A DNA stretch of 17,925 nt from Pedosphaera sp. (GTDB lineage Bacteria > Verrucomicrobiota > Verrucomicrobiia > Limisphaerales > SIBH01). Where the stretch lies: the NCBI GenBank assembly GCA_031414955.1, contig JANOQV010000076.1, positions 1-17,925 of the forward strand. Direction: 5' to 3'. Below the pieces are notes generated by a model. That model saw nothing but the letters and a program-made list of their open reading frames with translations, did not search any database and was not told the DNA's origin. Each line of letters starts with the position of its first letter. Position 1 is the first letter of the stretch. This document shows positions 1,883-17,274 of the stretch, in pieces. A program made the position numbers and the translations under genes.

Positions 1883-1963
1883 GGGTTGAGTTTGGGTATC
1901 AGTGCTGAAATCGCAGTTCAAGAAGCTATTCGTTCTACTGTTTATTCGGGTTCTTGACCGCCT
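1874..1963. repeat. Degenerate direct repeat, copy 1 (copy 2 at 8740-8830): gene 3' end + intergenic spacer + ATGAAACAC start of the next minus-strand gene
   Basis: Manual alignment of gtgtttcatgggttgagtttggg-tatcagtgctgaaatcgcagttcaagaagctattcgttctactgtttattcgggttcttgaccgcct against gtgtttcatggtttgggtgtgggcaatcagtgctctgttcgcaattcaagtggctattcgtccggctgtttcttcggacccttgcctgcct gives about 70/91 identities. Confidence 0.85.
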
Positions 1964-2030
1964 GCTCCGCGGCAAAGCACGGCCCGCAACAGAACGCCAC
2001 GACCACAACGATGGCGGCGGTGAATTTCAT
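1935..2030 (-). pseudogene. 31-aa gene remnant: a signal peptide joined directly to a degenerate sulfatase-like C-terminal tail
   Basis: Translation MKFTAAIVVVVAFCCGPCFAAEQAVKNPNKQ*, followed in frame by NE*. The first ~21 aa look like a Sec signal peptide. The tail QAVKNPNKQ*NE* aligns codon for codon with KAGKGPKKQPDE* at the end of the 8793-10229 sulfatase. Confidence 0.6.
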
Positions 2031-2191
2031 GGCCGAAGGATGCACCGCCCGCCCGGCGGAGACGAGAAAACTTCATGGCGGTCTGAACAGCCGCTCATGC
2101 ACGCCGTCCCCTTGCGTCGTCATCTGCCAGATACCGTCTTGCACTTTGGCGTTTCCACCCACTGCAGACTCGGTATGTTCTCTCGCGAAAC

Positions 2192-3532
2192 ATGGCCCAG
2201 ACCAACGCCACATCCACGCGACGGGGATTCGCCAGATACGGAGCCTACGTCGCAACGCTCCAACAATTGGCGCGTGAGCCCCGCACCGCCGCCGCGTGGG
2301 ATGAACGCACGGTCGCCGCCTTGGACGGCCAGGCCGGCGCGGAACTGCGCCGCGTCATCTCGCTGAAAACTCGTCGCAAGTTCGGCGCGTTCTTCACCGG
2401 CTCGAATCTCGCCGCGCGGCTTGTCGCGCATTGCAGTCCGTTCAACGCTCAAAGCGTCCTGCATGACCCGAGTCTGGGCATGGGGGATCTTCTCCTGGCT
2501 GGCGCTCAGAAACTTCCGCTGGGCTGGACCTTGGCCGACACGTTGCGGCAGTGGAGCCGCCAACTCACCGGCACCGATCTGCACCGCGAGTTCATCACAG
2601 GCGCGAAACTGCGATTAGTTTTGCTCGCGCGCCAGCGTCACGGGTTGAAGGCAGCACCCGTGAACTCAGTCGCCGGGCTGTTCCCCGGCATTCGCGTCGC
2701 CGATGGTCTCACACAACACGCTGCGTTCGCCCGCGCCACCAACCTGTTGCTCAACCCGCCCTTCGTCATCGCCAACGCGCCCGCTGATTGCCGATGGGCG
2801 GGCGGACGAATCACCAAGGCCGCGTCGTTTGTCGTCACCGCGTTGGAACGCGCCCGGCCCGGCACCGAACTCGTTGCCATTCTTCCCGACGTGCTGCGCT
2901 CCGGCTCCTTCTCCGCGCAATGGCGCAAGCGCGTCGAGGAATTGGCCGAGATTCAACTGGCCGAGCCGTATGGAATTTTTGACGACAGCGCCGACGTGGA
3001 TGTCTTCCTCCTCCGCGTCACCCGCCGCGTGGAGACTCAGAACCCTGTGCCACACGCGTGGACAACCGCCCCGCCGCCCCGCACCACGACCGTGGCCGAT
3101 TTCTTCGATGTCCACGTAGGCCGCGTTGTTCCCCACCGTGATAAAGAAGCCGGTCCCGAACGCCGTTACATTCACCCGCGCAACATCGACGTTTGGAAAG
3201 AAGTGACCCGCATTTCCGAAAAGCGCCGCCACGAAGGACTCACCTACCAGCCGCCCTTCGTCGTGCTCCGCCGCACCTCGCGCCCCGGCCATCCGTATCG
3301 CGCCGCCGCCACCGTCATTCTGGGCAAGAAACCCGTCGCCGTGGAAAACCATCTCATTGTCTGTGAGCCACACGACAAATCCGCCGATACTTGCCGCGCC
3401 CTCATGGAACAACTCCGCACCCAGCGCGTGAATGACTTCCTCGACCAGCGCATCCGGTGCCGTCACCTGACCGTGGGCGCAGTGGCGGCGATTCCATTCA
3501 ACTTCGCAAACAGTTCAGCGCACCGCAGATGA
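2192..3532 (+). CDS. Amino (probably N6-adenine) DNA methyltransferase, gamma-class motif order, with a C-terminal target-recognition region
   Basis: Motif X RRKFGAFFT, SAM-binding motif I LHDPSLGMGDLL, catalytic motif IV LLLNPPF (N188), then AILPDVLRSG and IFDDSADVDVFLL. The C-terminal VLRRTS...VENHLIV...VNDFLDQR region resembles PstI/BsuBI-like MTase C-termini (from recall). The stop overlaps the next ATG (ATGA, 3529-3532). Confidence 0.85.
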   Translation: MAQTNATSTRRGFARYGAYVATLQQLAREPRTAAAWDERTVAALDGQAGAELRRVISLKTRRKFGAFFTGSNLAARLVAHCSPFNAQSVLHDPSLGMGDLLLAGAQKLPLGWTLADTLRQWSRQLTGTDLHREFITGAKLRLVLLARQRHGLKAAPVNSVAGLFPGIRVADGLTQHAAFARATNLLLNPPFVIANAPADCRWAGGRITKAASFVVTALERARPGTELVAILPDVLRSGSFSAQWRKRVEELAEIQLAEPYGIFDDSADVDVFLLRVTRRVETQNPVPHAWTTAPPPRTTTVADFFDVHVGRVVPHRDKEAGPERRYIHPRNIDVWKEVTRISEKRRHEGLTYQPPFVVLRRTSRPGHPYRAAATVILGKKPVAVENHLIVCEPHDKSADTCRALMEQLRTQRVNDFLDQRIRCRHLTVGAVAAIPFNFANSSAHRR

Positions 3533-5865
3533 GCGCACCTGACAACCAACCTCCGGGCGAAATAAACCGGACGCTCCTTGATACCAGGGCGTTTTCGGTC
3601 TCTGCCCGCGTCGCCTTGCAACTTGGTCGAGAGAGCATTTCGAGTTCGGTCACGGCCATCCTTGAGTTGGTCAAGAACGCCTACGATGCGGATGCCACGT
3701 TGGTTCGGATTCGATTTCAGGGTCTCGGTTCTGCGCAGCCAAAGCTCGTGATTGAGGACAATGGCCGTGGGATGTCAGTGGATGACCTTTGCAACCACTG
3801 GATGGTCATCGGCACGGCGAACAAAGCGAAGACCCGCAAGACGGGTATGGGCCGCGTGCAGACCGGCGAGAAAGGGTTAGGACGACTGGGACTCGACAGG
3901 CTCTGCGAACGAACGCGCGTTCAATCCATCACGGCGAAGTCTGGCGAAGGCATCGAACTCGACGTGGATTGGCGACGATACGAGCAGTCGGAATCACGCC
4001 TCGAAGAAGTTCGGCACGAGATCTATGGCGTCCCCAATCTCGGCCACGATCCGCTCACTCAAGCTTGGGTGAAGTTCCCGAAGGGCACCCGCCTCATCCT
4101 GGATCAGTTGAAGGACGATTGGAGTCTTGAATCTCTCGCCGAGCTTCGAGCCGAGCTATCGTTGCTCGTTTCCCCGTTCTCTGCGCCGAATGATTTTTGC
4201 ATCGTGTTGGACACCGGCTTGCCCAACGAATCGCTCGACGGCCCGGTCAGCGTGCCGCCCTTCGTGTTGGAAGCAGCCAATTGGAAGGTTGTCGCCACCA
4301 TTGACGATCACGACATGGTGGCAATCAGGATGAATAACGCCGGGCACGATGTCGAATACCACCAAAAGCCAGTGCCGTGGGGAGAGTGGCAGAAGGGCAG
4401 CGGCACCAAACCGTTCTGCGGGCCGATGCGCTTCGAATTTTACTTCTTTCCGCGGAAGGAGGCGACAGTCGGTGGGCAAACTTTGAGCAAGACAGAGGTG
4501 TCGCAATTCCTCGATGCCAACCAGGGCATCCGCATCTACCGCGATGGATTTCGCGTCAAACCCTACGGTCAGCCCAACGGGGACGGCGACTGGCTCCAAC
4601 TCGCGTTCAAGAAGACCCGCAGTCCCGAAGGCGTGGCGCAGGATGCCGCCCCGGGCGCGTGGCGTTTGGGATACCATCAAGTGGTCGGAGCTGTCTTCCT
4701 CACTCTCGAAAAGAATCCCTCTTTGTCCGACCAGACGAACCGGGAGGGTTTGCTGGAAGGCAAGGCTTTCGCTCACCTCCGGGTGTTCGCTGCAAAGGCC
4801 CTGCGGTTTTTCGAACTCAAGCATCAGGAGTTTGAAATCGCCCGCAAACGAACCAAGAGCGTCGAGCCGGATGCCGAGGAGAAGGCCAAAGAGTCAGCGG
4901 TTGCGTCCGCAGACGCGATGAATCAACTGTCCGCGCTTCTGGCGAAACTCCGGCAGCAACCCGACAACTCGGGAACCGTCCCCTCACAAGCAGAGGAACT
5001 CGTCAATCTTCTCGCAAACACGCAGCAATCCTTGGAGAAGGCGAAGGCCTCCGCTGAGGAATCTGCACAAGCGGCCGCAGTGGAGAAGGCTCAGGTCGAG
5101 AAGCAAAAAAACATGCTTTCGAACTTGGCGTCGCTTGGGATTCTCGCGGCGGCGTTCGGACATGAAACCGTGGATTGGGCGGGCAATGTGAGCCAATACG
5201 CCAAGCGGCTTGACGAAGACGTCATCTCAAAAGCCTGGTGGATTCAGCCAGCAGAACTCCCCGACCTTCAAAAAACGCTCAAGTTCCTGATTTCAGAATC
5301 CAAGAAGCTGAAGAACTTCGCCAAATTTACTCTGGGGAACGTAAGCCGGGAGAAGCGCACCAAGAAGAGCGACGTCTGTTTGAGGCGAACTCTCGAAACT
5401 GTTTTCTCGGCATTTCGCGAGGTGATTGAAACCGACAAGAAGATTCGCCCTGAGTATCCGACGACAGGCGACTTTCTGGTGGAAGGATACTCGATGGATT
5501 GGGAGAGCATCTTCGTGAACCTCATCATCAACGCCGCGTGGGCGATGGAGATGAAGCCAGCCAACGAGCGCCAGATTCGCGTCGATATTCGCACGGAGGA
5601 TGGGTTCCACATTCTTCAGTTCGATGACAGTGGACGTGGTTTGGAAGCCGGAACCGAGGAAGCCATTTTTGAACCGACGTTCACCACCAAGCGAAACGAG
5701 CGTGGTGAAGAAGTCGGCACCGGGTTGGGGTTGACCATCGTGCGGGCATTCGTGGAGGAACACAGCCACGGCACCGTGATGGCAAAGCAAAAAGGCCCGC
5801 TGGGTGGCGCGAGCTTCATCATCACGGTTCCTGCCGCCACAAAAACACCGAAGCAACACTCCTGA
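3529..5865 (+). CDS. MORC/MutL-like GHKL ATPase fused through a coiled coil to a C-terminal histidine kinase (soluble, 778 aa)
   Basis: Start moved to ATG 3529 (ATGA overlap with the MTase stop). N-terminal GHKL motifs AILELVKNAYDADA, IEDNGRGM, GEKGLGRLG and KGT. S5-like region GIRIYRDGFRVKPYG...DWL...QTNREGL. Ala/Glu/Lys-rich coiled coil. H-box LGILAAAFGHE (H545), N-box FVNLIINA, G1 DDSGRG, F-box IFEPTFTTK, G2 GTGLGL. No transmembrane segment seen. Confidence 0.9.
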   Translation: MSAPDNQPPGEINRTLLDTRAFSVSARVALQLGRESISSSVTAILELVKNAYDADATLVRIRFQGLGSAQPKLVIEDNGRGMSVDDLCNHWMVIGTANKAKTRKTGMGRVQTGEKGLGRLGLDRLCERTRVQSITAKSGEGIELDVDWRRYEQSESRLEEVRHEIYGVPNLGHDPLTQAWVKFPKGTRLILDQLKDDWSLESLAELRAELSLLVSPFSAPNDFCIVLDTGLPNESLDGPVSVPPFVLEAANWKVVATIDDHDMVAIRMNNAGHDVEYHQKPVPWGEWQKGSGTKPFCGPMRFEFYFFPRKEATVGGQTLSKTEVSQFLDANQGIRIYRDGFRVKPYGQPNGDGDWLQLAFKKTRSPEGVAQDAAPGAWRLGYHQVVGAVFLTLEKNPSLSDQTNREGLLEGKAFAHLRVFAAKALRFFELKHQEFEIARKRTKSVEPDAEEKAKESAVASADAMNQLSALLAKLRQQPDNSGTVPSQAEELVNLLANTQQSLEKAKASAEESAQAAAVEKAQVEKQKNMLSNLASLGILAAAFGHETVDWAGNVSQYAKRLDEDVISKAWWIQPAELPDLQKTLKFLISESKKLKNFAKFTLGNVSREKRTKKSDVCLRRTLETVFSAFREVIETDKKIRPEYPTTGDFLVEGYSMDWESIFVNLIINAAWAMEMKPANERQIRVDIRTEDGFHILQFDDSGRGLEAGTEEAIFEPTFTTKRNERGEEVGTGLGLTIVRAFVEEHSHGTVMAKQKGPLGGASFIITVPAATKTPKQHS

Positions 5866-6497
5866 TGAAACCCACCATCCTGTATTTTGTAGATGAACGC
5901 GAAGAAGCGCGGTGGGCGATTGCGCCCTCGCTGGAACGTTTTTTGGCTTCACCAGAAATCAAGGTCGTGCCTCTTGCGCCTTTTGCAGAGCTTTCTCAAT
6001 TCGATGTGTTGCTCAAGGAACCAAATCTCGGCGGCTTCTTCATTGACCAAAAGATGCGGGGCGGCTCGGTGACCTACAACGGCATTGAACTTGCCGGGCA
6101 TCTGCGTGCGCTTCACCCAAAGCTACCCATCTACATCCTGACCGGCTACCCGCCAGATGATGAACTCAACAGCGGAGCCTACCGTGTGGAAGACATCGTG
6201 GATAAGGAGGTTCTTGAAGAGCGCACTTTGGAGAAGGCGCAGATAATCAAGGCGAGAATCCTGCGGCGTCTGGCAGTCTTCGGCGATGTGCTCAATGCAC
6301 GAGAGCAAAGGTTTCACGACTTACTCGTCAAAAGCTTGAAACAACCGCTGACTGCGGAAGAAGAGCGGGAGCTTGGCATCGTGGAGGCCGAGCGCCTGGT
6401 GCCGACGCAAGCCGAAGAATTACGCGACGCCAAGTCCTTGGAGAAAGCCATCGAGGAACTGAAAGCGAAACTCAGGCCGGATAAACTCAATCTGTGA
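5865..6497 (+). CDS. Response-regulator receiver (REC) domain protein with a helical C-terminal extension and no recognisable DNA-binding domain
   Basis: TILYFVDE (acidic pocket), GFFIDQKM (phosphoacceptor D61), NGIELAGHLR...LPIYILTGY (conserved Thr), IVDK (conserved Lys). TGATG one-base overlap with the kinase stop. Confidence 0.85.
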   Translation: MKPTILYFVDEREEARWAIAPSLERFLASPEIKVVPLAPFAELSQFDVLLKEPNLGGFFIDQKMRGGSVTYNGIELAGHLRALHPKLPIYILTGYPPDDELNSGAYRVEDIVDKEVLEERTLEKAQIIKARILRRLAVFGDVLNAREQRFHDLLVKSLKQPLTAEEERELGIVEAERLVPTQAEELRDAKSLEKAIEELKAKLRPDKLNL

Positions 6498-6500
6498 GCG

Positions 6501-7163
6501 ATGGACGCCAAGGCTGCCGCAACTTCATCTGAATTCTTCCCGTCGCTAAAACGGCGGGCACAATACACGACCAAACCAAACGGTGAGTTCTACGCCTACC
6601 GTTACTACCGAGAACACTTCCATCACGAAATCGCCGAGTCCTGCGTGTGCCGTTGTGTTTACTGCGACTCGCACGAGGCCGAGATAGGCGGACGGGAGCA
6701 GATGCAGATTGACCACTTCCGTCCCTACACGCGCGCGGGCTTCGAGCATCTGGAAGACGAGCCGGAGAATTTTCACCACGCGTGCGTACGCTGCAATTCA
6801 CTCAAGTCGGACAAATGGCCATCCACGCACCCGACCGCACCACACGACGGCACCGTTGGCTTCGTTGATCCGTTCGCAGACGACCGCCGCCGTTATTTCA
6901 AAGTCGAAGACGATGGCGAACTGGTTCCGTTGCAGCATCCGGCCGAATACCTCATCCGCGTGCTGGCTCTCAACCGCCGGCATCTGAAGCTGCTTCGGCT
7001 GCGGCGGATTCTGCACGCACAACTCCAAGCCTACGTTGCCGAGAATTCACCACGCTGGGAAAAGGCTGCGCGTGGTGAAGGCGGCATGACACAGCAGGAG
7101 TTGGGACAAGCACTGATGGAATGCAAACGGCTCTACCGTCTCTGTTCCTTTGGGACGCAATAG
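6501..7163 (+). CDS. Zinc-binding HNH endonuclease
   Basis: RCVYC...QIDHFRP...NFHHACVRCNSLKSDKW...FVDPFADD: two CxxC pairs and the DH...N...N core typical of HNH nucleases in defence operons. Starts 3 nt after the REC stop. Confidence 0.88.
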   Translation: MDAKAAATSSEFFPSLKRRAQYTTKPNGEFYAYRYYREHFHHEIAESCVCRCVYCDSHEAEIGGREQMQIDHFRPYTRAGFEHLEDEPENFHHACVRCNSLKSDKWPSTHPTAPHDGTVGFVDPFADDRRRYFKVEDDGELVPLQHPAEYLIRVLALNRRHLKLLRLRRILHAQLQAYVAENSPRWEKAARGEGGMTQQELGQALMECKRLYRLCSFGTQ

Positions 7164-7224
7164 CCCGTTTCAAAATCCTGGTGGGCGCTTGGCATTTTCT
7201 GCTTTGTCCCGCCGGGTCGGAGAC

Positions 7225-7246
7225 TGGCGCTCCGGCATCAGCGCCA
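7225..7246. terminator. Short GC-rich hairpin between convergent genes, possible terminator
   Basis: tggcgct-ccggcatc-agcgcca, a 7-bp stem with an 8-nt loop, in the gap between the HNH and sulfatase stops. No strong U-tract follows it. Confidence 0.25.
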
Positions 7247-7270
7247 ATTAGCGCGCATCAGCGGTTCGAC

Positions 7271-7299
7271 TTTTTTGCGCTCTCTGCGCGCTTTGCGGC
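7271..7299. repeat. Three-unit, 9-nt-periodic TGCG element; probable small interspersed repeat
   Basis: ttttgcgct ctctgcgcg ctttgcggc. Resembles the GCGCAAA-type intergenic repeats recalled from PVC genomes. Confidence 0.45.
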
Positions 7300-7345
7300 C
7301 AATGAACCACCGCGTTGGCGCAGTGGTTTCGGCAACCTGGGCGCT

Positions 7346-8748
7346 TCACTCCTTGCCGTTCTTCTCCACTGGCCTGGCCGGACTTTTGCCGCGCGCAGGC
7401 GGCGACCACGCGGCGGGTTTCGGGTTGGCGACTTTCAGCGGGTGCTGGTCGGCGTAGCGGGCCATTTCCTTTTCCAGCGACGCGGTGAGTTGGGCGACCT
7501 TCGCGGCCTGCTCCGGCTTTTCGGCGAGGTTGTTCAGTTCAAGCGGGTCAGCGCTGAGATCGAAAAGCTGGGTGCGATCCACGAGCGGGTAGCGAATGAG
7601 TTTCCAGCGATCATCGCGGATGGCGCGCTGGCCGTTGCGATACGCAGTGTAGAGCACGTCGCGGAGTTTCGTTTCCTTGCCGGTCAGGATCGGGACAAGA
7701 CTTTTGCCCTCGACGCCATCAGGGTTTTTCGCCCCGGCGAATTCCGCGAAGGTCGGGAACAAATCCATGAGATAGACCAACGCCTCGCTCTTGCCCTTGG
7801 AAATTCCGGGCCCGGCCACGACGAGCGGGACGTGCAGGCCGCCGAATTCGTAGAGGTTTTGTTTTCCGAACAAGCCGTGCTCGCCCATCGAGAGTCCATT
7901 GTCGCCGCTGAAGATGATGATGGTGTTCGTCCACTCACCGCTGGCCTTCAACGCGGCGAAGATGCGTCCGACGTGATGGTCGAGTCCGGTGATGCAGGCG
8001 TAATAGTCGGCGTTCTGCTCCTTCGTGTCCTCCGGCGTGCGGGGCCACGGCGCGAGCGCTTCATCGCGCACGGTCATCTCGCCGTTGTCGAAGGGATGCT
8101 GCGGCAGGAACGCGGGCGAGAGCGGGATCTTCGCCGGGTCATAAAGCTTGTGAAACTGCGGCTCGCCGAGCGCGGGTCGTGCGGGACAGGCGGCGCGAGA
8201 TAAATGTAGAACGGTTTGCTTTCGTTAGTGGCCGCGCGGGACTTGAGGAACTCAATCGTGCGGTCCGCGAGACGACGACTGTTACCCGCACGCTCACCGC
8301 CTTTGCCTTCGTCACGAATGCTGGTTTGAAACTCAGAGATCCCTGCCGGGAAACCATTGCCAGCCTTCCCCATGTGCCACGTCTGGTAGCCGGCGGCCTG
8401 GATGACTCGCGGCAGGAAGGTCGTTGGATCCTTGGCGTTGGCCGTCGCTCCCGGAGCGCCCGGAATGCGCTGCCACGAGCGGCCGGTGAGCATCATCGTG
8501 CGGCTCGGCGTGCAGACGGCGCCAATCATCGAGCCCATCGTGTAGGCGCGCGTGAAAGCCATGCCGCGCTCGACGAGCGTGTCGAGATTCGGCGTGACGA
8601 GCAGCGGGTTGCCCAGGGCGTGCAAGCCGTCGGCACGATGATCGTCCGCGTGGATGTGGAGAATGTTCGGCCTGGGTTTTTCGGCGGCGTGCAGTCCCAC
8701 GAGCGGCGCGAGCAGCAGGGTAGCGAGAAGTGTGATGGCGTGTTTCAT
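7346..8748 (-). pseudogene. Secreted Cys-type (formylglycine-dependent) sulfatase split by a 1-bp deletion near 8164; pseudogene or sequencing error; about 467 aa if repaired
   Basis: ORF 8074-8748 has a signal peptide, RPNILHIHADD, CTPSRTMMLTGR, GKAG and PVPHDPRSA, then loses similarity. Adding one base at ~8164 (tcg gcg [g]ag ccg cag) gives SAEPQFHKLYDPAKIPLSPAFLPQHPFDNGEMTVRDE, which joins ORF 7346-8077 (GDNG, GKQNLYE, WKLIRYP, QLFDL) and is collinear with the neighbouring paralog. Confidence 0.85.
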
Positions 8749-8830
8749 GGTTTGGGTGTGGGCAATCAGTGCTCTGTTCGCAATTCAAGTGGCTATTCGT
8801 CCGGCTGTTTCTTCGGACCCTTGCCTGCCT
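8740..8830. repeat. Degenerate direct repeat, copy 2 (copy 1 at 1874-1963)
   Basis: About 77% identical to 1874-1963 by manual alignment. Covers the last 12 codons and stop of the 8793-10229 sulfatase, the intergenic spacer and the start of the next sulfatase. Confidence 0.85.
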
Positions 8831-10229
8831 TGGGCGGACTCCATGCGGCGGGCTTTGGGTTCGCGACCTTCAAGGTGCCGGTGTCGCCGCTGCGGTGCAT
8901 TTCCTTTTCGAGCGCGGCGGTGAGTTCCGCGAGCTTTGAGGCGTGCTCGGGTTTCCCGGCGAGGTTCGTGATTTCCTGCGGGTCCGTCTGCAAATCGAAA
9001 AGCTGGGTGCGGTTCACTTGCGGATAGCGGATGAGTTTCCAACGTCCATCAGTGAAGCCGCGCTGCCCGCGCATGTAGGCGAACATCAACTGACTGCGCG
9101 CCGGCTGCGCGGGATCTTTGAGCGTGCTGGTGAAGTCGATGCCTTCGCTGGTCTTCGGCCCAGTCACGCCGCAGAGTTTGCCCAGCGTGGGCAGCACGTC
9201 GAAGAGGTAGCACATCGCATCGGTGCGTTTGTTCTTGGAGATGCCGGGGCCGGCGATGATGAGCGGCACGCGCATGGAGTGCTCATAGACGTTCTGTTTT
9301 CCGATGAGCCCGTGGCTGCCGCGCGCCACCCCGCTGTCGGCCGCGAAGGCGATGATGGTGTTCTTCGCCGCCGGCGATGCCTCCAGCGCCTCCAGCACGC
9401 GACCGATCTGCGCGTCGAGATACGAGATGTAACGGTAGTACTCGGCGAGGAAGGCGCGCACCTTCTCCGGCGTACGCGGCCAGGGGAGAAGCTTCTCGTC
9501 GCGAATCTCCATCTCGCCATTGTCCCAGGGATGCTGCGGCAGAAAATTCGGCGGCAGCGGAATTTGATCCGGCGTGTAGTGAATGGGGAAATCATCCGGC
9601 ACAATGTGCGGATCGTGCGGGCCGTCGAAGGGCAGATAGGCGAAGAACGCGTTGGTGTGCGGTTCGCGAAGAAACGCAATGATCTCGTCGGCGAAGGTGG
9701 CGCAGGCGTGCTTCGGAGAGATGGAAGCGGGACCCATCTTGCCGTCTTCCAAGCTGCTGAGCGGAGCCTTGAGCGGATCGGTCATGCCGCCGGTGAAGAG
9801 ACTGCGAGCGCGTTGGAAACTGAGCCGGACGGAGCCCGGAGTGTTGTGCCACTTGCCGCTGATGAACGTGGTGTAGCCAGCGCGACCGAAGGCGGCGGGC
9901 CACGTCTCGTCGCGGGTAAGTTTCTCGTCGATGTGGAAAAGCGACCGACCGGAGAGCAGCATCGCGCGCGACGGCACGCAAGTCGCGCCGTTGAACCCGC
10001 CCTGCATGTAAGCGCGATTGAACGCCGTGCCACGGCGGACGAGCCGGTCGAGATTCGGGGTCTGGATCACCGGATTGCCGAGCGCCGCGATGGTGTCCGC
10101 GCGCTGATCATCGGCGAAGAAGAAGAGGATGTTGGGTTTGCCGGCGTCGTTCCCTGCTGGCGCATCGGCCGCGTGAAGCGCGAACGGCGACACGAGCAGC
10201 AAGACGGCGAAGCTGAGGAAGCTCTTCAT
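8793..10229 (-). CDS. Secreted Cys-type sulfatase (478 aa), paralog of 7346-8748
   Basis: Start moved to ATG 10229 (MKSFLSFAVLLLVSPFALHAA signal peptide; GGAGG upstream). Motifs KPNILFFFADDQR, CVPSRAMLLSGR, GKWH, PHDP, ADSG, GKQNVYE. Shares the C-terminal LKVANPKPAAWSPP with its neighbour. Confidence 0.92.
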   Translation of the reverse strand: MKSFLSFAVLLLVSPFALHAADAPAGNDAGKPNILFFFADDQRADTIAALGNPVIQTPNLDRLVRRGTAFNRAYMQGGFNGATCVPSRAMLLSGRSLFHIDEKLTRDETWPAAFGRAGYTTFISGKWHNTPGSVRLSFQRARSLFTGGMTDPLKAPLSSLEDGKMGPASISPKHACATFADEIIAFLREPHTNAFFAYLPFDGPHDPHIVPDDFPIHYTPDQIPLPPNFLPQHPWDNGEMEIRDEKLLPWPRTPEKVRAFLAEYYRYISYLDAQIGRVLEALEASPAAKNTIIAFAADSGVARGSHGLIGKQNVYEHSMRVPLIIAGPGISKNKRTDAMCYLFDVLPTLGKLCGVTGPKTSEGIDFTSTLKDPAQPARSQLMFAYMRGQRGFTDGRWKLIRYPQVNRTQLFDLQTDPQEITNLAGKPEHASKLAELTAALEKEMHRSGDTGTLKVANPKPAAWSPPKAGKGPKKQPDE

Positions 10230-10243
10230 GGTTCCCCCTCCAT

Positions 10244-11503
10244 CTACTGCTGTGTGAAGACGAACACGCCTTTCTTGTTGGCCACGATGACGTCGGGTTT
10301 GCCGTCCTTGTTGAGGTCGCCGGTGGTGACTTGCGTGCCGACGCCGCTGTCGTCGTCGATGCGATGCGGGATGAACTCCGCGCCGCCCTTGCCATCGCGC
10401 TTGAGCTGAAACCAATAAAGCACCGGCGCGGCGGCCGGCTCCGCGTCCGCTGAAGGTCCATGCGCCCAGCGCCGTTTGCCGGTGACGAGATCCATCACGC
10501 CGTCGCCATCGACATCCACCAGGCGCAGCGCGTGAAGCTGGCTGAACTTCACGCCCTGCTTGTTCTCCTTGTTCGTGCTGCCCATGAACTTGTGCTCGAT
10601 GAAGCTGCCGTCTTTCTTCTGCTCGAACCAGCCGAGCCCGTAGCCGTGGGCATCGTAGCTCGTGATGACATCATTCCGGCCGTCGCCGTTCACGTCATAG
10701 ACATACATGTGCGCGCCGCCACGCGCGCCCGCCGGGCCGAAAGGGCCGGGATGAAACTTCCAGTCCTGGTCCTCCTTCGTGCTCGCCGGTTGTTCGTACC
10801 ACCCTTCCTTCGCGAGAATATCCACGCGTCCGTCGCCGTTCACGTCGCCCGCGCCGTAGCCGTGTGTGTAGCGGAAATATTTCTCGTCGTTCGCCGACGA
10901 CTTGGGCGTGATGGGACGGAAGCGCGCTTTGCCCAGTGGATTCGCCCAATCAATCTCCGCGTAGCCAAGCTGCCCGCCGCCCTTGCCATTGGCCGTCTTG
11001 GGCTTGTTCGCATTGCTGGAATGCACGAGCAACTCCGGTTTGCCGTCGCCATTCATGTCCTTCAAGTCCGGTGACTCGCCATCGGCCACGTCGAAGATGG
11101 CGTGCTTCTCCCAGTTCCCCGCCTTGCCCTTCGGATTGATGTACACGAGCGCCGGTTCACCCGGCAGGCCATAGACGAGAATGTCCGCCCACGCATCGCC
11201 GTTGAAGTCATGCGCGTAAGCCAGGAAATAGTCGGAGTAACCCTTCGCCGGATCGTAAGGCGTCTTGGTCGGGCCACTCTCATTCACACTGGGCGGCGTG
11301 AAGTTCGCGCGCCGCGCAAAGTCCGGCCCGTACCAGATGGAGCACCCGGCGGTGATATCCATGTGGCCATCATGATCGAAGTCGGCGAAGTCGCAGCCTT
11401 CGGCGACAAACTCAGTGGTGAGGGTTTGCTTTTTGAAGGTGACGCTGGCGGCGTGCAACGGCAGCGCCGCCATTACGGCGAGCAGGAGTGGAGTGAATTT
11501 CAT
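10244..11503 (-). CDS. Secreted FG-GAP/VCBS repeat beta-propeller protein (419 aa)
   Basis: Signal peptide MKFTPLLLAVMAALPLHAA from ATG 11503. Seven DxxxDGxxD-type loops: DFDHDGHMD, DFNGDAWAD, DMNGDGKPE, DVNGDGRVD, DVNGDGRND, DVDGDGVMD, DLNKDGKPD. Confidence 0.9.
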   Translation of the reverse strand: MKFTPLLLAVMAALPLHAASVTFKKQTLTTEFVAEGCDFADFDHDGHMDITAGCSIWYGPDFARRANFTPPSVNESGPTKTPYDPAKGYSDYFLAYAHDFNGDAWADILVYGLPGEPALVYINPKGKAGNWEKHAIFDVADGESPDLKDMNGDGKPELLVHSSNANKPKTANGKGGGQLGYAEIDWANPLGKARFRPITPKSSANDEKYFRYTHGYGAGDVNGDGRVDILAKEGWYEQPASTKEDQDWKFHPGPFGPAGARGGAHMYVYDVNGDGRNDVITSYDAHGYGLGWFEQKKDGSFIEHKFMGSTNKENKQGVKFSQLHALRLVDVDGDGVMDLVTGKRRWAHGPSADAEPAAAPVLYWFQLKRDGKGGAEFIPHRIDDDSGVGTQVTTGDLNKDGKPDVIVANKKGVFVFTQQ

Positions 11504-11589: not shown

Positions 11590-13035
11590 TCACTCCTCCG
11601 ACTTCTTCCCTTGGCCCTTCTTCTTCTGCTCCGCAGTTTTCGTGGTGCCGTCATTCTTCGTCGGCATCGGGGCTTTCACCGCTGTGCGCCAGGCGACGAG
11701 GCGGGCGTGGAGTTCCTTCGCCTTGGCGGAGTTCTCCTGCGCGAGGTTCTTCGTTTCGCCGAGGTCGGTGCGGAGATTGTAAAGTTCCAGCCGGCCGTCT
11801 TCGAGAAACTCCATCAACTTCCAGTCGCCGCTCTGGATGAGGCTCACCGGCGTGGTGCGCCACGAGTCCACGCCCGCGCCGAGGTAGCCGGGGAAGTGTT
11901 GGTAGATGGCGTCGCGCTGGAGCGTCGCGCCCGGGTCGCGGAACAACTTCACGAGACTCTCGCCGTCCAGCACCTGCCGGGGCTTGGGCGCGCCGGCGAG
12001 TTCGAGCATCGTCGGAAAAATATCCACATGAATGGCCGGCACGTCGCACGCCGAGCCGGGCCTGGTCACGCCCGGCCAGCGGACGATGAACGGGTCGCGC
12101 GTGCCGCCCTCGTAGAGACTGCCCTTACCGCTGCGCAGCGGGGCGTTGTCGGTGATGTCGCCGGCCTTCTTGATGCCTTCGCGCACGTAGCCGCCCACGC
12201 CGCCGTTGTCGCTGGTGAAGATGAGCACGGTGTTGTCGGCCAGCTTCAACACATCGAGCGCCTTCATCACGCGGCCCACACTTTCGTCCACGCTGGCAAT
12301 CATCGCGGCGTAGGCCGGGTTGTTGTGGCCACCGACGCCGGGCTTGGTCTTGAACTTCTCGATGAGTTCCGGTTTCGCCTGATGCGGCGCATGCACGCCA
12401 AAGTGCGGCAGGTAGAGAAAGAACGGCCGCTCCTTGTGCCGCGTGATGAAGTCCACGGCTCTGTCGGTGAGGAAGTCGGCGAGGTATTGGCCCTTGGGAT
12501 ATTCAGTCTTCGGATTCGTGGCGAAAGCGAAGTGTTGCCCCGCGCTGACAATGGCTTCATCGAAGCCGCGCTTACCCGGATGAAACTCGCCGCCCTCGCC
12601 GATGTGCCATTTGCCGAACAGGCCCGTCGCGTAGCCGACGGCCTTGAGCTGCCTGGCGATAATATCGCGGTCGAGCGGAAGTTCCGTGACGTTGTCCACC
12701 GGACGCAACGGGCGTTTGCTCCAGTCGAAGCGATCGATGCCGCCGACGGTATAGACGCCCGTGCGCGCGCCGTACTGGCCGCTCAGCAGCGCGGCGCGGG
12801 TAGGCGTGCAATTCTGGCATTGATGGTAGCTCGTGAGCTTCAGGCCCTGCGCCGCGAGCCGGTCGATATTCGGTGTCTCGTAGTATTTGCTGCCGAAGCA
12901 CGCGACGTCCGTGTAGCCGAGATCATCGGCCATGATGAAGATGATGTTCGGCTTTGCCGTGGGCGCGCCAGCGGCGTGGACTGCGGCCAGCGAAGCCAGC
13001 AGCAGGGCGGCGATGAGAGTGAGGGTGTGTTTCAT
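11590..13035 (-). CDS. Secreted Cys-type sulfatase, arylsulfatase-A-like (481 aa)
   Basis: Own signal peptide MKHTLTLIAALLLASLAAVHAA from ATG 13035, preceded by GAGGGAACTCTTAAAACC. Motifs KPNIIFIMADDLG, CTPTRAALLSGQY, GKWH, SDNGG, KGSLYEGGTR, ELYNL. Confidence 0.92.
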   Translation of the reverse strand: MKHTLTLIAALLLASLAAVHAAGAPTAKPNIIFIMADDLGYTDVACFGSKYYETPNIDRLAAQGLKLTSYHQCQNCTPTRAALLSGQYGARTGVYTVGGIDRFDWSKRPLRPVDNVTELPLDRDIIARQLKAVGYATGLFGKWHIGEGGEFHPGKRGFDEAIVSAGQHFAFATNPKTEYPKGQYLADFLTDRAVDFITRHKERPFFLYLPHFGVHAPHQAKPELIEKFKTKPGVGGHNNPAYAAMIASVDESVGRVMKALDVLKLADNTVLIFTSDNGGVGGYVREGIKKAGDITDNAPLRSGKGSLYEGGTRDPFIVRWPGVTRPGSACDVPAIHVDIFPTMLELAGAPKPRQVLDGESLVKLFRDPGATLQRDAIYQHFPGYLGAGVDSWRTTPVSLIQSGDWKLMEFLEDGRLELYNLRTDLGETKNLAQENSAKAKELHARLVAWRTAVKAPMPTKNDGTTKTAEQKKKGQGKKSEE

Positions 13036-13350
13036 GGTTTTAAGAGTTCCCTCTCGAGCACGGCCACCGGCGCCGATGGTGCCCTTGACAATCTTCAGCT
13101 TCGGAAAACGCTGGTGTTCCATGGCCATGACCTCGGCCGAGAGATCAGCGGAGGCCCAGAGGCGCACCTCGGCCTCGGGGATGTGCTTCGCGATCAAGGC
13201 CAGCACGCCCGGCGTGTGCGCGATGTCGCCGATGTTCACGACCTGCCACGACGAACGCAGCAGGATGCGCGGCGCGCGCTGGTCGGCGGCGTGGACCGAG
13301 GCGGCGACGGAGGCAAGGACGGCGGACTTGATAAACGTGCGACGGTTCAT
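13036..13350 (-). pseudogene. N-terminal fragment (~100 aa) of a Tat-exported polysaccharide pyruvyl transferase-family protein, running in frame into the downstream sulfatase
   Basis: MNRRTFIKSAVLASVAASVHAA is a twin-arginine signal. RILLRSSWQVVNIGDIAHTPG...EVRLW matches my recall of this family's N-terminus (NxGD motif). Similarity ends near GTIGAGGRA (~13060) and there is no stop before the sulfatase ATG. Confidence 0.65.
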
Positions 13351-13865
13351 GAGTCGCCGCCGATTCTGCCAAAAGCCGTTCGCGGCCGCAGCGGCAACAC
13401 CGGCAACGGACAGCCCTGCCCGTAGGACCACGGGAGTTTCTTGTAGAGCGCGGAACGCTCGCGCTTGAGCCAGGCCGCCATCCAGTGGCGCATGAACATG
13501 AAAAGTGCATCCCGCCCCCGGTTGCCCGATTCATTCAATAATTTGTGAAACTGCCGGTGGTGGTCGTAGCAGTAATACGCCTTGGCGGCGAGGCGTTCAG
13601 TAAAACCGGCGGGAACGGTGGCGTTAAGAAAACGTTCCACTTCCTGCACCACGCTTTCGGCGACCCATTCGGGAGTGAGCGACGTGTCGCGTTCCAGTTG
13701 GGTGGGGAGTTCGGTGTGTAACCACGCGCGGGATTCTTGACGGAGCGTCGAACTTCGGTTCGGCGCGTTGATGTTTTGGGAACACGCCGATTTGGCAATC
13801 GGCGTTCCGTTACGCCGCGCCTTCGACGCGGGCGACTTCTTCGGGCGTGGGGTTGGAGAGTTCAT
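13347..13865 (-). CDS. Hypothetical protein (~172 aa): basic, low-complexity N-terminus and an aromatic-rich helical core
   Basis: ATG 13865 lies just downstream of the REP-like hairpin. Core LERDTSLTPEWVAESVVQEVERFL...GRDALFMFMRHWMAAWLKRER...LPWSYGQG looks globular. The stop overlaps the next ATG (ATGA, 13347-13350). Confidence 0.55.
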   Translation of the reverse strand: MNSPTPRPKKSPASKARRNGTPIAKSACSQNINAPNRSSTLRQESRAWLHTELPTQLERDTSLTPEWVAESVVQEVERFLNATVPAGFTERLAAKAYYCYDHHRQFHKLLNESGNRGRDALFMFMRHWMAAWLKRERSALYKKLPWSYGQGCPLPVLPLRPRTAFGRIGGDS

Positions 13866-14013: not shown

Positions 14014-17000
14014 TCATGCGTGGCCCTCCACGAGTTGGATTTCCTCCGGCGTCAGGCCGTAGAGTTCATAGACCAGCGCGTCGATTTGCTGGTCGGTGGC
14101 GGTGACGGCGTTTTGCAGCACGGCCTTTTCCGAATCCGCCGTGGCCGCGCGCAGCTTGGGCATCAAGCCCAGCAGCTTGTCCACCAGCACCACCAGCTTG
14201 TCGTGCCGGGATTTGTCAGTGACCGCCAGATTGGGAAAAGGAAGCGGTTCAAGTTTCGCGGCTTTTATCTGCGGAATCACCCGCGACTCCCCTTGATTGG
14301 AAACGCGATAAAGGAAAAGGAACAGCTTCGATTGAAGGATTCCGAGGGCCGCCTTGACATCCACAGGGGACTTAAACTTGAAGACATACATCGCGTCCGT
14401 CACAACCAAGCTGTCCTCTTTGTCGTAAACAATCTCAATGGTCTTTGTAGTCGTGAGTCCGATGAGCTTTGGCGACTCAAAGATCTCAGGGTCGCGCGCA
14501 CGGTGTAAAGCCCACCACGGATGCTTCCCCTCTTTGACTTCCACGCAAGTGTTCTGGCTTTTGAATTCCTCCAAGCGTGCGATTGCGTTTGGAATATTTT
14601 TCGGTGTCAGTCCTTTGTGCGTGTAGAGAATCCATTGGTCGGGAACAACGCACCCGTAACGCTTAATCTTCTTGCCGGAGATGCTCCGCCGCAAAACAAC
14701 TCGCTCGATTCTCCTGAGCGCTGGGTCTCGGTCGGGAATGACGTGCGCCTCGGCAATGTCCGGGCTCACTCCACGCGCGATACCGGACTGTGTGAACTCG
14801 CCTAGCGTGCTGTGCGATTTCTTCAACCGTAGCAGCATCGCGGTTCGCGCATCCGAATTCGCAAAGAAAGTGTTTGTTGCATCAGCCATGACTTGCTCAA
14901 CCCATACAGCAGAATTCACGAACCCTACTTGTACGAGAGCGGCGGCGCGGTCCTCGAGAGGTAAAGCTGACAAGTCACCGACAATCATTTGCGCCGGTTG
15001 TTTGCCGCCAGACGTCACGATAAGGGCAGTGGTGTTCAAGACTTTCGTGGTGAACACGTCCTTGCCAGCGTTGATGACTGCTGCGACGCCTGATTCGAGA
15101 AGCAATTTACGCAGTGGACCAGCGTCCACTTGATTCAGAACCGTCGCTGGAATCACAAGACCAACGCGCCCTTCCTTTCGGATGACGCGCAGCGCTTGGT
15201 CAGTGAAGTAGATGTAAGTGTCAACCATCCGCCCTACGACGCGGGAGAATGTTTCACTGAGATACTTCCTCACCTGGACTTCCAGTTCCGCACCCCAAGG
15301 CGGATTGCCGATGACGGCGTCGAAGCCGCCGGCTTTCATGATGGGCGCGAATTGCACCGGCCAGTCGAAGGCGTGAACGCGCACGAGGTCTTCGGGCATC
15401 ATCGAGAAGTCGGAAGCGATGAGGGAGTTGCCGCACTTGATGTTGTCCTGCAAGGGCGGCAGCAGGGCGATCTCGGTTTCGTCGGCCAGCAGTTCGCGCT
15501 GGCGCTGGAGAGTGGTGCGGTTCTCGCCTTCCAGCATCTTGAGGTAGAGCGAGAGCTGGGTGACTTCGACGGCGGCGGCGTCCAAGTCCACGCCGTAAAT
15601 GTTCTGGGTGAGAATCTGGCGCTTGAGCGCAACGGTCAGGTGAACGTCGTTGGTGGCGGCATCCACCCAGCAGAGCGGGCGGTGTTTCTTTTCCCAGGCG
15701 GCGCGTTCTGCTTTCTGCTCTTTGGGCGGGAGCGAGGCGGTGAGGCGTTTCTGCCAGTGTTCGCACACGCGCTCGAAGGCCCGGATGAGGAAGGAGCCGG
15801 AGCCGCAGGCGGGATCGAGCAGGCGCAGGGCGGCGGTGCGTTTCTCGAAATCCTTCAGTGTCGGGAGGAGCGCCGAGCAATGCTCGGCTTGGGCGGACGA
15901 TAACGCTGGTTCATGCCGAGCAATGCTCGGCGCTCCTCCGGCGATTTCATCCAGCAGCTTCCCGGCGGTCTGCTCGACGATGTAGTCCACGATGTAGCGC
16001 GGGGTGTAGTAGACGCCCCCGGCCTTGCGGACTTCGGGCTTCTCCTCGATGACGATGCCGCGTCCATGCGGGCGGACGACTTTGCCGAGGAAGCGTTCAT
16101 AGACGCTGCCGAGAATCTCGACGGGGATTTCGCTGAAGAGATAGGGCGATTCGTCGTCGCTCAGTTCGCCGATGAACCCGGCCAGCCATTCGTCGCCAAT
16201 GATGAGGCCTTCGGTGAAGTGCGGCTTGAAGAGGTTGCCGTTGAAAAAGGGAACGTGCGTGGGCGGGCGGCGGTCGAGCGCGCGGAAATGCCGGACCACG
16301 GCGCGCCACAGGGAATCCTTGGGCGCGCGGATGCCGCTGCTGCCGTAATCGGCGGGCGGTTCTTCGTGCAGTGAATCAAAGGGCTGCTGATGGGCGCGGC
16401 GTCCGGTGTCTTCGTGGCCGGTGTTCTTGCGCCACGTCTCGACAATGCTTTGCAGGGTCCGGCCGGTGTCAATGTCGCGGTCCTCGCAGATGCGGAGAAA
16501 CAGGATGCGGTCAATGATGCGCTGGCAGGCTTCAGTGAGCTTGTCGCCATCGAGCAGTTCGGTGTGGTCGTTGTTTTTGTAGATGTCGGAGGCGAGGTCG
16601 CGCCGTGACTCATCAAGAAACTTGAGAAACTCCACGTCCAGCGCGCGGGTGCGGTCAGGTTTGATGAGCCATTGCTGGCGGGCCTTGCCTTTGCCGGTGG
16701 GACGCTTGGGGAGGGCTTCGATGGCTTGGTCAATACTCCCGGCGGCAACTTTATCCCGCGCGAGCAAATCCCAAAGCTCGCGGGCGATGAGCGGGTATTG
16801 GCGAAAGTGCCAGGTCTTCCATTCGCCCACCTGCGGTTCGTCGAGATAGGGGCGGCTGCCGACGACATAGACCTTCATCTCCTCAAAGTCGGTGAGGATG
16901 CCGAGCGGCACGGGCTTGTTCCAAGCGTAGCGTTTGGTTTGGAAAGCGTACCGGGCGGAAAGTTCCTCGGCGGGCTTCTTCGCCTCGCAGACGAAGCGGC

Positions 17001-17274
17001 CGCGCTTGTCGGTGCGGAAAAAATAATCAGCACGCTTGCGTCCGCCGCCGATCTGCGTGGCGCTCTCGATCTCCACTTCGCGTTCCTGCTGGATCAGGCC
17101 GGCGCGGTTCTCCATGTCCCAGCCGAGCGCGCGAAAGAAGGGATTGAGGAAATCGTCACGGAGTTGCGCTTCGGCATAGCCGGGCTGCTTGAGTTCGGTG
17201 AGACGTTTGCCAAAGGATTCGACCAGCCGGTTCAGTTCCTTTTCAAAAGATTCAAAGCTGTGGTCGGATGGCAT
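14014..17274 (-). CDS. Type IIG-like (Eco57I/TaqI_C-type) fused restriction endonuclease-N6-adenine methyltransferase with C-terminal specificity region (1086 aa)
   Basis: N-terminal nuclease EAQLRDDFLNPFFRALGWD...EVEIE...RADY...VCEAKKP (D...ExK) and LTDFEE. MTase LGSVYERFLG, motif X RKAGGVYYTP, motif I LDPACGSGSFL, IYGVD, motif IV VIGNPPW. C-terminal LGILQSKL...LPFP and IDALVYELYGLTPEEI. Confidence 0.93.
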   Translation of the reverse strand: MPSDHSFESFEKELNRLVESFGKRLTELKQPGYAEAQLRDDFLNPFFRALGWDMENRAGLIQQEREVEIESATQIGGGRKRADYFFRTDKRGRFVCEAKKPAEELSARYAFQTKRYAWNKPVPLGILTDFEEMKVYVVGSRPYLDEPQVGEWKTWHFRQYPLIARELWDLLARDKVAAGSIDQAIEALPKRPTGKGKARQQWLIKPDRTRALDVEFLKFLDESRRDLASDIYKNNDHTELLDGDKLTEACQRIIDRILFLRICEDRDIDTGRTLQSIVETWRKNTGHEDTGRRAHQQPFDSLHEEPPADYGSSGIRAPKDSLWRAVVRHFRALDRRPPTHVPFFNGNLFKPHFTEGLIIGDEWLAGFIGELSDDESPYLFSEIPVEILGSVYERFLGKVVRPHGRGIVIEEKPEVRKAGGVYYTPRYIVDYIVEQTAGKLLDEIAGGAPSIARHEPALSSAQAEHCSALLPTLKDFEKRTAALRLLDPACGSGSFLIRAFERVCEHWQKRLTASLPPKEQKAERAAWEKKHRPLCWVDAATNDVHLTVALKRQILTQNIYGVDLDAAAVEVTQLSLYLKMLEGENRTTLQRQRELLADETEIALLPPLQDNIKCGNSLIASDFSMMPEDLVRVHAFDWPVQFAPIMKAGGFDAVIGNPPWGAELEVQVRKYLSETFSRVVGRMVDTYIYFTDQALRVIRKEGRVGLVIPATVLNQVDAGPLRKLLLESGVAAVINAGKDVFTTKVLNTTALIVTSGGKQPAQMIVGDLSALPLEDRAAALVQVGFVNSAVWVEQVMADATNTFFANSDARTAMLLRLKKSHSTLGEFTQSGIARGVSPDIAEAHVIPDRDPALRRIERVVLRRSISGKKIKRYGCVVPDQWILYTHKGLTPKNIPNAIARLEEFKSQNTCVEVKEGKHPWWALHRARDPEIFESPKLIGLTTTKTIEIVYDKEDSLVVTDAMYVFKFKSPVDVKAALGILQSKLFLFLYRVSNQGESRVIPQIKAAKLEPLPFPNLAVTDKSRHDKLVVLVDKLLGLMPKLRAATADSEKAVLQNAVTATDQQIDALVYELYGLTPEEIQLVEGHA
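15864..15939. repeat. REP doublet (REPIN-like) lying in frame inside the Type IIG gene
   Basis: 25-bp inverted arms ggaggagcgccgagcaatgctcggc (15864-15888) and gccgagcaatgctcggcgctcctcc (15915-15939), 24/25 complementary, with a 26-bp spacer. Each arm contains its own palindrome gccgagca-a-tgctcggc. Confidence 0.85.

Follow-up and report, generated by a model that had tools for sequence, protein, structure and literature searches.

A mobile, likely Ambrosia-type operon in a verrucomicrobial genome and a predicted contact between its receiver and its HNH nuclease

Described systems and the layout of the operon

Ambrosia (AbrR-AbrA-AbrB-AbrC-AbrD) of Pseudomonas aeruginosa is a validated anti-phage system composed of an XRE protein, an N6-methylase, a kinase/HATPase, a receiver, and an HNH protein, each of which is required (van den Berg et al., bioRxiv 10.1101/2025.09.30.679545). 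According to the accessible part of that preprint, a D60A substitution in the receiver abolishes protection, phage grown on AbrA-expressing cells stayed sensitive to the system, expression rises upon infection, and no host toxicity was seen. Its authors describe AbrC as having a winged helix and propose that control is transcriptional. The methylase of Ambrosia is needed although it does not seem to protect DNA. A wider theme of such two-component-like defense elements has been predicted (PMC8011034 and PMC2292703); our statements about these and the other cited works apply to their accessible parts. Our literature search found Ambrosia in the van den Berg et al. preprint alone, a search joining HATPase_c_3, response regulator, HNH, methyltransferase, and phage found no paper, and the accessible parts of papers on Tiamat, VcSduA, DefensePredictor, and BREX do not describe the operon presented here.

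We analyzed a 17,925-nucleotide stretch of DNA (the window) from Pedosphaera sp., a member of the Verrucomicrobiota (GCA_031414955.1, contig JANOQV010000076.1). It contains four plus-strand genes within a set of minus-strand genes:

5' part ends near 1882, minus strand: ThuA/F5_8 gene, flank of the cassette
2192-3532, plus strand: DNA amino-methyltransferase, AbrA position, 446 aa
3529-5865, plus strand: paraMORC-like GHKL ATPase fused to a histidine kinase, AbrB position, 778 aa from ATG
5865-6497, plus strand: receiver with a C-terminal helical hairpin (as modeled), AbrC position, 210 aa
6501-7163, plus strand: PtuB-family HNH nuclease, AbrD position, 220 aa
7346-8748, minus strand: sulfatase, flank of the cassette
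8793-10415, minus strand: sulfatase, flank of the cassette
11590-13431, minus strand: sulfatase, flank of the cassette

The genes are joined by ATGA at 3529-3532, TGATG at 5863-5867, and a 3-nucleotide gap (TGA-GCG-ATG) before the HNH gene, and the flanking sulfatase and carbohydrate genes all lie on the opposite strand. These junctions and this orientation had been reported in an initial annotation, and both read as claimed. Chance open reading frames were ruled out by the invariance of the catalytic residues in homologs and by the receiver and HNH genes directly downstream of the kinase gene in 5/5 kinase-anchored GTDB loci, the three of which with room upstream also carry the methylase gene. 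GC3 is 0.745 in the methylase gene, 0.69, 0.62, and 0.66 in the kinase, receiver, and HNH genes, respectively, and 0.77 to 0.85 in the flanking genes. Terminator-like sites were rarer than in shuffled sequences, and neither insertion-flanking repeats nor a sigma-70 promoter-like site was seen.

The order of methylase, kinase/HATPase, receiver, and HNH genes is the same as in Ambrosia, and the phosphoacceptor is D61 in the window and D60 in Ambrosia. Ambrosia is found in P. aeruginosa, whereas the window copy is verrucomicrobial, as its closest named kinase homologs also suggest; the window family also occurs in Gammaproteobacteria, including Pseudomonas. A receiver of this family from Pseudomonas viridiflava has D60 as the phospho-Asp and shares 29% identity with the window receiver over the full length. 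No P. aeruginosa record appeared among the named matches in our searches (receiver profile and cluster look-ups, and kinase against plasmids), or when the P. viridiflava receiver was compared with viral, plasmid, and phage sequences. Ambrosia includes a HipB-like XRE gene (AbrR), but the window operon does not: neither the three upstream ORFs in the window nor any of 70 small ORFs lying upstream in 23 related loci matched an XRE family, while a control ORF (L133) did. The Ambrosia receiver is reported to have a winged helix, whereas the tail of the window receiver models as two helices. Compared by published description, the two operons are likely members of one family, and we infer their orthology on that basis. 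The initial annotation knew of no characterized system with this arrangement and held that a match to a named system would count against its proposal; Ambrosia, with its N6-methylase, kinase/HATPase, receiver, and HNH protein plus XRE protein, is such a match at the level of domain content.

Three flanking genes have features of their own. The sulfatase gene at 7346-8748 is split into overlapping ORFs (8074-8748 and 7346-8077), and related contigs differ by one base in length near 8164-8168, suggesting a frameshift. The minus-strand ORF at 11590-13431 (613 aa) encodes a sulfatase from residue 161, preceded by the TAT-like leader of an apparent second protein, and it looks like two genes joined by a deletion. 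Finally, a 1,086-aa type IIG restriction-modification fusion (14014-17274, minus strand; PADLOC REase_MTase_IIG, 424 bits) is encoded 7 kb from the cassette amid minus-strand host genes.

The four proteins and the receiver-nuclease contact

Pfam has no methylase family match in the gene at 2192-3532, and we therefore identified its product by motifs and by a structure model as a DNA amino-methyltransferase with an M.TaqI-like fold. The protein consists of N-terminal helices, the motifs GAFFT, DPSLGMG, and NPPF, and a C-terminal target-recognition region that is strongly conserved among homologs. NPPF is invariant in 63/63 homologs, and the other two motifs are invariant or nearly so; 2,101 of 8,000 scored sequences are homologs at an E value of ≤0.001. 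The model (pLDDT 82.7) matches M.TaqI, BpuSI, and M.BseCI, and its similarity to M.TaqI-type adenine methylases (Foldseek E value of 7e-11, TM scores of 0.48 and 0.54) indicates that the enzyme is probably of the N6-adenine type. As a separate observation, the hexamers CACGTG, GTGCAC, GTCGAC, and CAGCTG occur in the genome at 5 to 9% of their expected counts, hinting at restriction-site avoidance that is not assignable to the window methylase.

The second protein contains HATPase_c_3 (PF13589, residues 40-156) and HATPase_c (PF02518, residues 659-770) domains, both above the Pfam cutoffs, with a middle domain and a coiled coil between the GHKL ATPase (E46/N50) and the histidine kinase (H545). 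Its best NCBIfam match, the BbrUII/HgiDII N terminus (E value of 3.6e-21), is far below the cutoff. E46, N50, and H545 are invariant in 73/73 homologs. The His box is GHET, and the residue four positions after the histidine (residue 549) is G, D, or N in the 73 homologs and never T, which, by rules that we take to apply here, may mean weak phosphatase activity. The initial annotation had called this protein MORC-like. The GHKL ATPase part of that label stands, but the protein is not a MORC in the strict sense: the MORC motif of the S5 domain is GhXhhpXXRhl (PMC2292703), and the window sequence, G333-IRIYRDGF-R342, places its Arg one position late. MORC is thus a loose label, and paraMORC-like is the better one; paraMORC ATPases are associated with restriction-modification (R-M) neighborhoods (PMC2292703; PMC8011034).

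The receiver matches Pfam Response_reg below the cutoff (E value of 0.0018), has the expected residues D10, D61, T93, and K114, and gives a model (pLDDT 81.3) with receiver-fold matches. D61 is invariant in 26/26 aligned receivers. The model ends in long helices at residues 123-159 and 164-202 with no strands; it contains no winged helix in this tail, and Pfam finds no helix-turn-helix or other DNA-binding domain. Solved structures related by sequence cover the receiver domain alone, apart from a weak match to the tail (E value of 0.32).

The fourth protein matches PF01844 above the Pfam cutoff and has C-terminal helices. In PADLOC, one of the checks named in the initial annotation, it is identified as PtuB (E value of 3e-16), and the solved structures that match it best are those of retron and Septu PtuB (E values of 1e-6 to 3.5e-4). 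H72, N90, N99, and the four cysteines of the Zn-binding CxxC pairs are invariant in 25/25 homologs. All of the catalytic residues listed in the initial annotation are intact at the positions given there (N188 in NPPF, E46, N50, H545, D61, D71-H72, C52xxC55, and C95xxC98).

Modeling of the receiver together with the HNH protein gave a score of 0.84 in three runs, compared with 0.00 for the best of three controls. The runs agreed in at least 85% of contacts, with a partner pLDDT of at least 87. This mark was reached by 116/157 solved complexes and 2/215 mismatched pairs, and also by 7/44 blindly picked neighbors; the score came from our own alignments, making these calibration counts approximate, and solved PtuA-PtuB complexes may lend likeness to the model. 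In the modeled interface, residues 147-159 and 174-203 of the receiver face residues 97-119, 146-178, and 207-215 of the HNH protein. Y150 and R159 of the HNH protein (25/25 each) and L154 (23/26), L192 (25/26), and E185 (21/26) of the receiver are conserved, and many other interface positions are variable (for example, HNH E149 and V154, 5/25 each, and receiver T181, 3/26).

The docking surface in the model is formed by the HNH C-terminal helices, the same element that PtuB nucleases use for PtuA. In Retron-Eco7, it is the C-terminal helices of PtuB that bind PtuA (PMC12673091); tRNA is cut in vitro by PtuAB but by neither protein alone, and PtuB depends on PtuA for tRNase activity and stability (PMC13376987). 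The model thus predicts that the receiver hairpin binds the HNH protein, and we regard direct control of the nuclease by the receiver as reasonably likely. The two-component pair would probably switch the nuclease by binding rather than by turning genes on. The proposal in the initial annotation that the receiver licenses the HNH protein is plausible on this basis, and the phosphorelay residues are invariant. PtuB relatives cleave either tRNA-Tyr (Retron-Eco7) or DNA (Septu) (PMC12673091), which leaves both DNA and tRNA as potential targets.

Conservation, mobility, and module exchange

The initial annotation had proposed looking for the four-gene order in other genomes. We classified 117 methylase-anchored loci from plasmids, metagenomes (the best 80 of 503), viral contigs (28), and genomes, 39 of which were too short to assess. 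The order MTase-kinase-receiver-HNH recurs in 32 of the 78 assessable loci, which form 25 clusters when methylases are grouped at 90% identity and include one broken locus, L011. A further 26 encode a metallo-beta-lactamase (MBL) hydrolase in place of the HNH protein, one is an MBL form with a deletion, and 19 lack a kinase gene downstream; in the last group, the kinase-receiver-HNH block of L012 lies upstream, and L038 contains a fragment of the MBL gene. Receivers of the HNH type are found in Klebsiella, Photobacterium, Psychromonas, Vibrio, Enterobacter, Citrobacter, Serratia, Pantoea, and Pseudomonas viridiflava, and the gene order is also kept in named Gammaproteobacteria. The receiver profile matched 580 clusters (50% identity) at an E value of ≤1e-10, and the phospho-Asp position is D in 259/259 aligned receivers.

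The distribution is patchy. The methylase was present in 3 of 400 genomes of the phylum and in 1 of 60 relatives, where it was partial at a contig end, and E. coli genomes had no DNA match to a Klebsiella-type copy of the cassette. Contigs of two studies, about 84 to 90% identical to the window, join position 1889 to 8756 or 1898 to 8768 and skip the cassette plus one sulfatase gene; they come from related organisms, and such joints can stem from repeats, so that these contigs lend weak support. One copy (L095) lies between P2-type gpA and portal genes, an interval that we take to be an anti-phage hotspot, and others adjoin prophage integrase or repressor genes. The four genes are a real, conserved, and horizontally mobile operon of the defense type, and by analogy with Ambrosia its role is very likely defense. 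This much of the initial annotation, a defense operon with a phosphorelay, has held up.

Two plasmid copies are decayed. In Klebsiella variicola (L011), the kinase is in three pieces and a short receiver lies near ppl; in Rhizobium phaseoli (L012), a split kinase-receiver-HNH block precedes the methylase, followed by an IS630-type element.

Comparison of loci with similar methylases revealed exchange of what follows. In four pairs of loci (L028/L041, L078/L074, L001/L018, and L024/L019), the methylases are 84 to 87% identical, the kinases are only 24 to 27% identical, and no BLAST match was found between the receivers or between the effectors, which indicates that the kinase, receiver, and effector genes are exchanged together as one block. 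A quick tree of 61 methylases requires 16 changes of the HNH label, 13 of which are forced by starred branches. Receiver type tracks effector type in 58/58 loci: no MBL locus (0/26) scored above 27 bits with the HNH-type receiver profile, and no HNH locus (0/32) scored above 23 bits with the MBL-type profile, each profile having been built from the very class that it separates. The share of helix-forming residues in the last 70 positions is 0.63 in HNH-type receivers and 0.43 in MBL-type receivers. The MBL loci (L010, L013, L017, L122, and 22 more) have receivers with a different, beta-rich tail, for which no Pfam or Atlas match was found; an Atlas look-up of the HNH-type receiver returned unnamed clusters alone.

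The methylase family also adjoins other modules. In eight prophage loci (L098, L103, L106, L107, L110, L111, L117, and L118), it is convergent with paired GmrSD_N and HEPN genes, and in most cases an S24 repressor gene lies alongside; the methylase and the pair together are a candidate three-gene defense unit. In L093 and L124, it is followed by GmrSD_N and RelA/SpoT-like nucleotidyltransferase genes (L123 has ORFs of the same sizes), and in L050 it is followed by a PDC-M23A/B, Hachiman-like helicase pair (L047 and L051 are alike in size).

Of 79 viral loci anchored on the kinase, 14 encode a short receiver directly before an HNH gene. Seven belong to the window clade, six begin with the kinase, receiver, and HNH genes and continue with a methylase-like gene that the window methylase-family profile does not score, and one has a different methylase upstream. 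The HNH protein and receiver of the rearranged loci are homologous to those of the window. The receiver-tail profile misses the receivers of this rearranged clade (E value of >3); therefore, the predicted receiver-HNH contact may not extend to it.

Mechanism and relation to known systems

On balance, we lean toward a mobile Ambrosia-type anti-phage operon with two modules, one being the methylase and the other a triad of co-adapted kinase, receiver, and nuclease. Upon infection, the GHKL clamp would read a state of the DNA that the methylase sets or flags, namely, the methylation status of incoming or replicating DNA. The fused kinase would then autophosphorylate H545 and pass the phosphate to D61. 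With its hairpin docked on the HNH C-terminal helices, the receiver would turn the nuclease on at the protein level, taking the place that PtuA has in Septu and retrons, and the HNH protein, which has no evident sequence-recognition domain, would nick DNA and halt phage replication. The contact in the third step is modeled, the defense role and the need for the phospho-Asp are drawn from Ambrosia by analogy, and the trigger (the weakest step), the direction of switching, and the nuclease substrate are conjectural. The docking model and the block swapping of the triad favor gating at the protein level and speak against a simple cognate methylase-nuclease pair. Further, free exchange of the triad behind similar methylases suggests a signal that passes via DNA or cofactor state rather than through a tight methylase-kinase contact. 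Against this mechanism, a protein-level switch needs none of the winged helix, infection-induced transcription, and required XRE protein of Ambrosia.

A broader reading, which is possible but which we hold to be less probable, is that the family forms a plug-in immune platform. In that case, the methylase would be a marker or bait in front of swappable response modules with no co-evolved interface to it (kinase-receiver-HNH, kinase-receiver-MBL, GmrSD_N-HEPN, GmrSD_N-RelA/SpoT-like, and the helicase pair), and these modules would read its state. In the kinase modules, an effector-specific docking tail on the receiver would let phosphorylation gate a separate nuclease in trans, the receiver replacing PtuA as the partner of PtuB. 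If true, this reading would overturn the transcriptional model proposed for Ambrosia.

Gated self/non-self restriction, in which the methylase marks the host, the GHKL clamp with the methylase finds unmethylated foreign sites, and the relay licenses the HNH protein, would fit the intact methylase with its conserved recognition region and the R-M ties of paraMORC ATPases (PMC2292703; PMC8011034). In addition, the negative Ambrosia test used AbrA alone, and methylation of phage by AbrA alone is not evident in the accessible text. We nevertheless consider this model unlikely: AbrA-grown phage were still sensitive to Ambrosia, near-identical methylases front divergent kinases and unrelated effectors, the same methylase family also adjoins other modules, and free exchange of the triad is a poor fit with a cognate self-protection pair and argues against a tight methylase-kinase interface. 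The claim in the initial annotation that the methylase marks self DNA is weakened accordingly.

Somewhat less likely still is a guard model with an abortive outcome, in which the methylase serves as bait, its stalling by DNA mimics or SAM-depleting proteins of phage is sensed by the kinase, and the activated HNH protein cuts host tRNA or DNA. That one methylase family fronts several unrelated toxic modules, that PtuB relatives cut tRNA-Tyr or DNA (PMC12673091), and that Detocs is a phosphorelay-gated abortive defense with swappable effectors (bioRxiv 10.1101/2023.01.24.525353) are in keeping with such a model, but no host toxicity was seen during Ambrosia defense. The Ambrosia authors' model, in which the receiver, when phosphorylated, acts as a transcription factor and induces the methylase and nuclease on infection, draws on an infection-induced reporter and the winged helix reported in AbrC, but it is very improbable for the window operon, where the receiver ends in two long helices without wing strands that are predicted to bind the HNH protein, Pfam finds no DNA-binding domain, no XRE gene lies upstream, and translational coupling of the four genes precludes independent control of the nuclease gene.

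If the two-module mechanism is right, it would add a mode of immune signaling, with a separate PtuB-type nuclease controlled through direct contact with a receiver. The predicted interface names specific residues to mutate, and triads can be swapped between natural locus pairs whose methylases are nearly identical but whose triads differ. With neither an XRE gene nor a winged helix, the window copy is a minimal test case.

Other described systems share parts of this design. HEF_HK/Response_reg_2 elements (Bellieny-Rabelo 2021, PMC8011034) likewise combine HATPase_c_3, a His box, and HATPase_c beside a receiver gene, with methylase and nuclease neighbors, but they have a receiver query of about 600 aa and mainly a C5 methylase, whereas the window has a 210-aa receiver, an amino-methylase, and a GHET His box. 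Membership in this group was ruled out, as the genome has no PF19191 or PF19192 match at an E value of ≤1. Prokaryotic MORC/paraMORC R-M ATPases (Iyer 2008, PMC2292703) likewise have methylase and HNH neighbors; the window protein differs in its fused kinase, in the absence of a helicase from the operon, and in its departure from the strict motif. In Detocs (Rousset et al., bioRxiv 10.1101/2023.01.24.525353), a His-to-Asp relay also directly gates a swappable effector, but the effector is fused to the receiver, there is a spare receiver (DtcB), and there is no methylase, whereas the window operon has a GHKL-clamp sensor. Detocs was ruled out by the single receiver and separate HNH protein of the window, and no Detocs model was among the PADLOC matches. 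Septu and the PtuAB of type I-A retrons likewise have a PtuB-family HNH protein that docks on its partner via C-terminal helices. There, the partner is the ABC ATPase PtuA; in the window, it is predicted to be the receiver tail, and there is no reverse transcriptase. These systems were ruled out, as no PtuA ABC ATPase gene is present in the operon or its flanks. By its domain content, the operon is of a kind whose anti-phage activity has already been validated in Ambrosia; what is new is the XRE-less form, a predicted receiver-HNH interface at odds with the transcriptional model published for Ambrosia, and the swapping of blocks behind the methylase.
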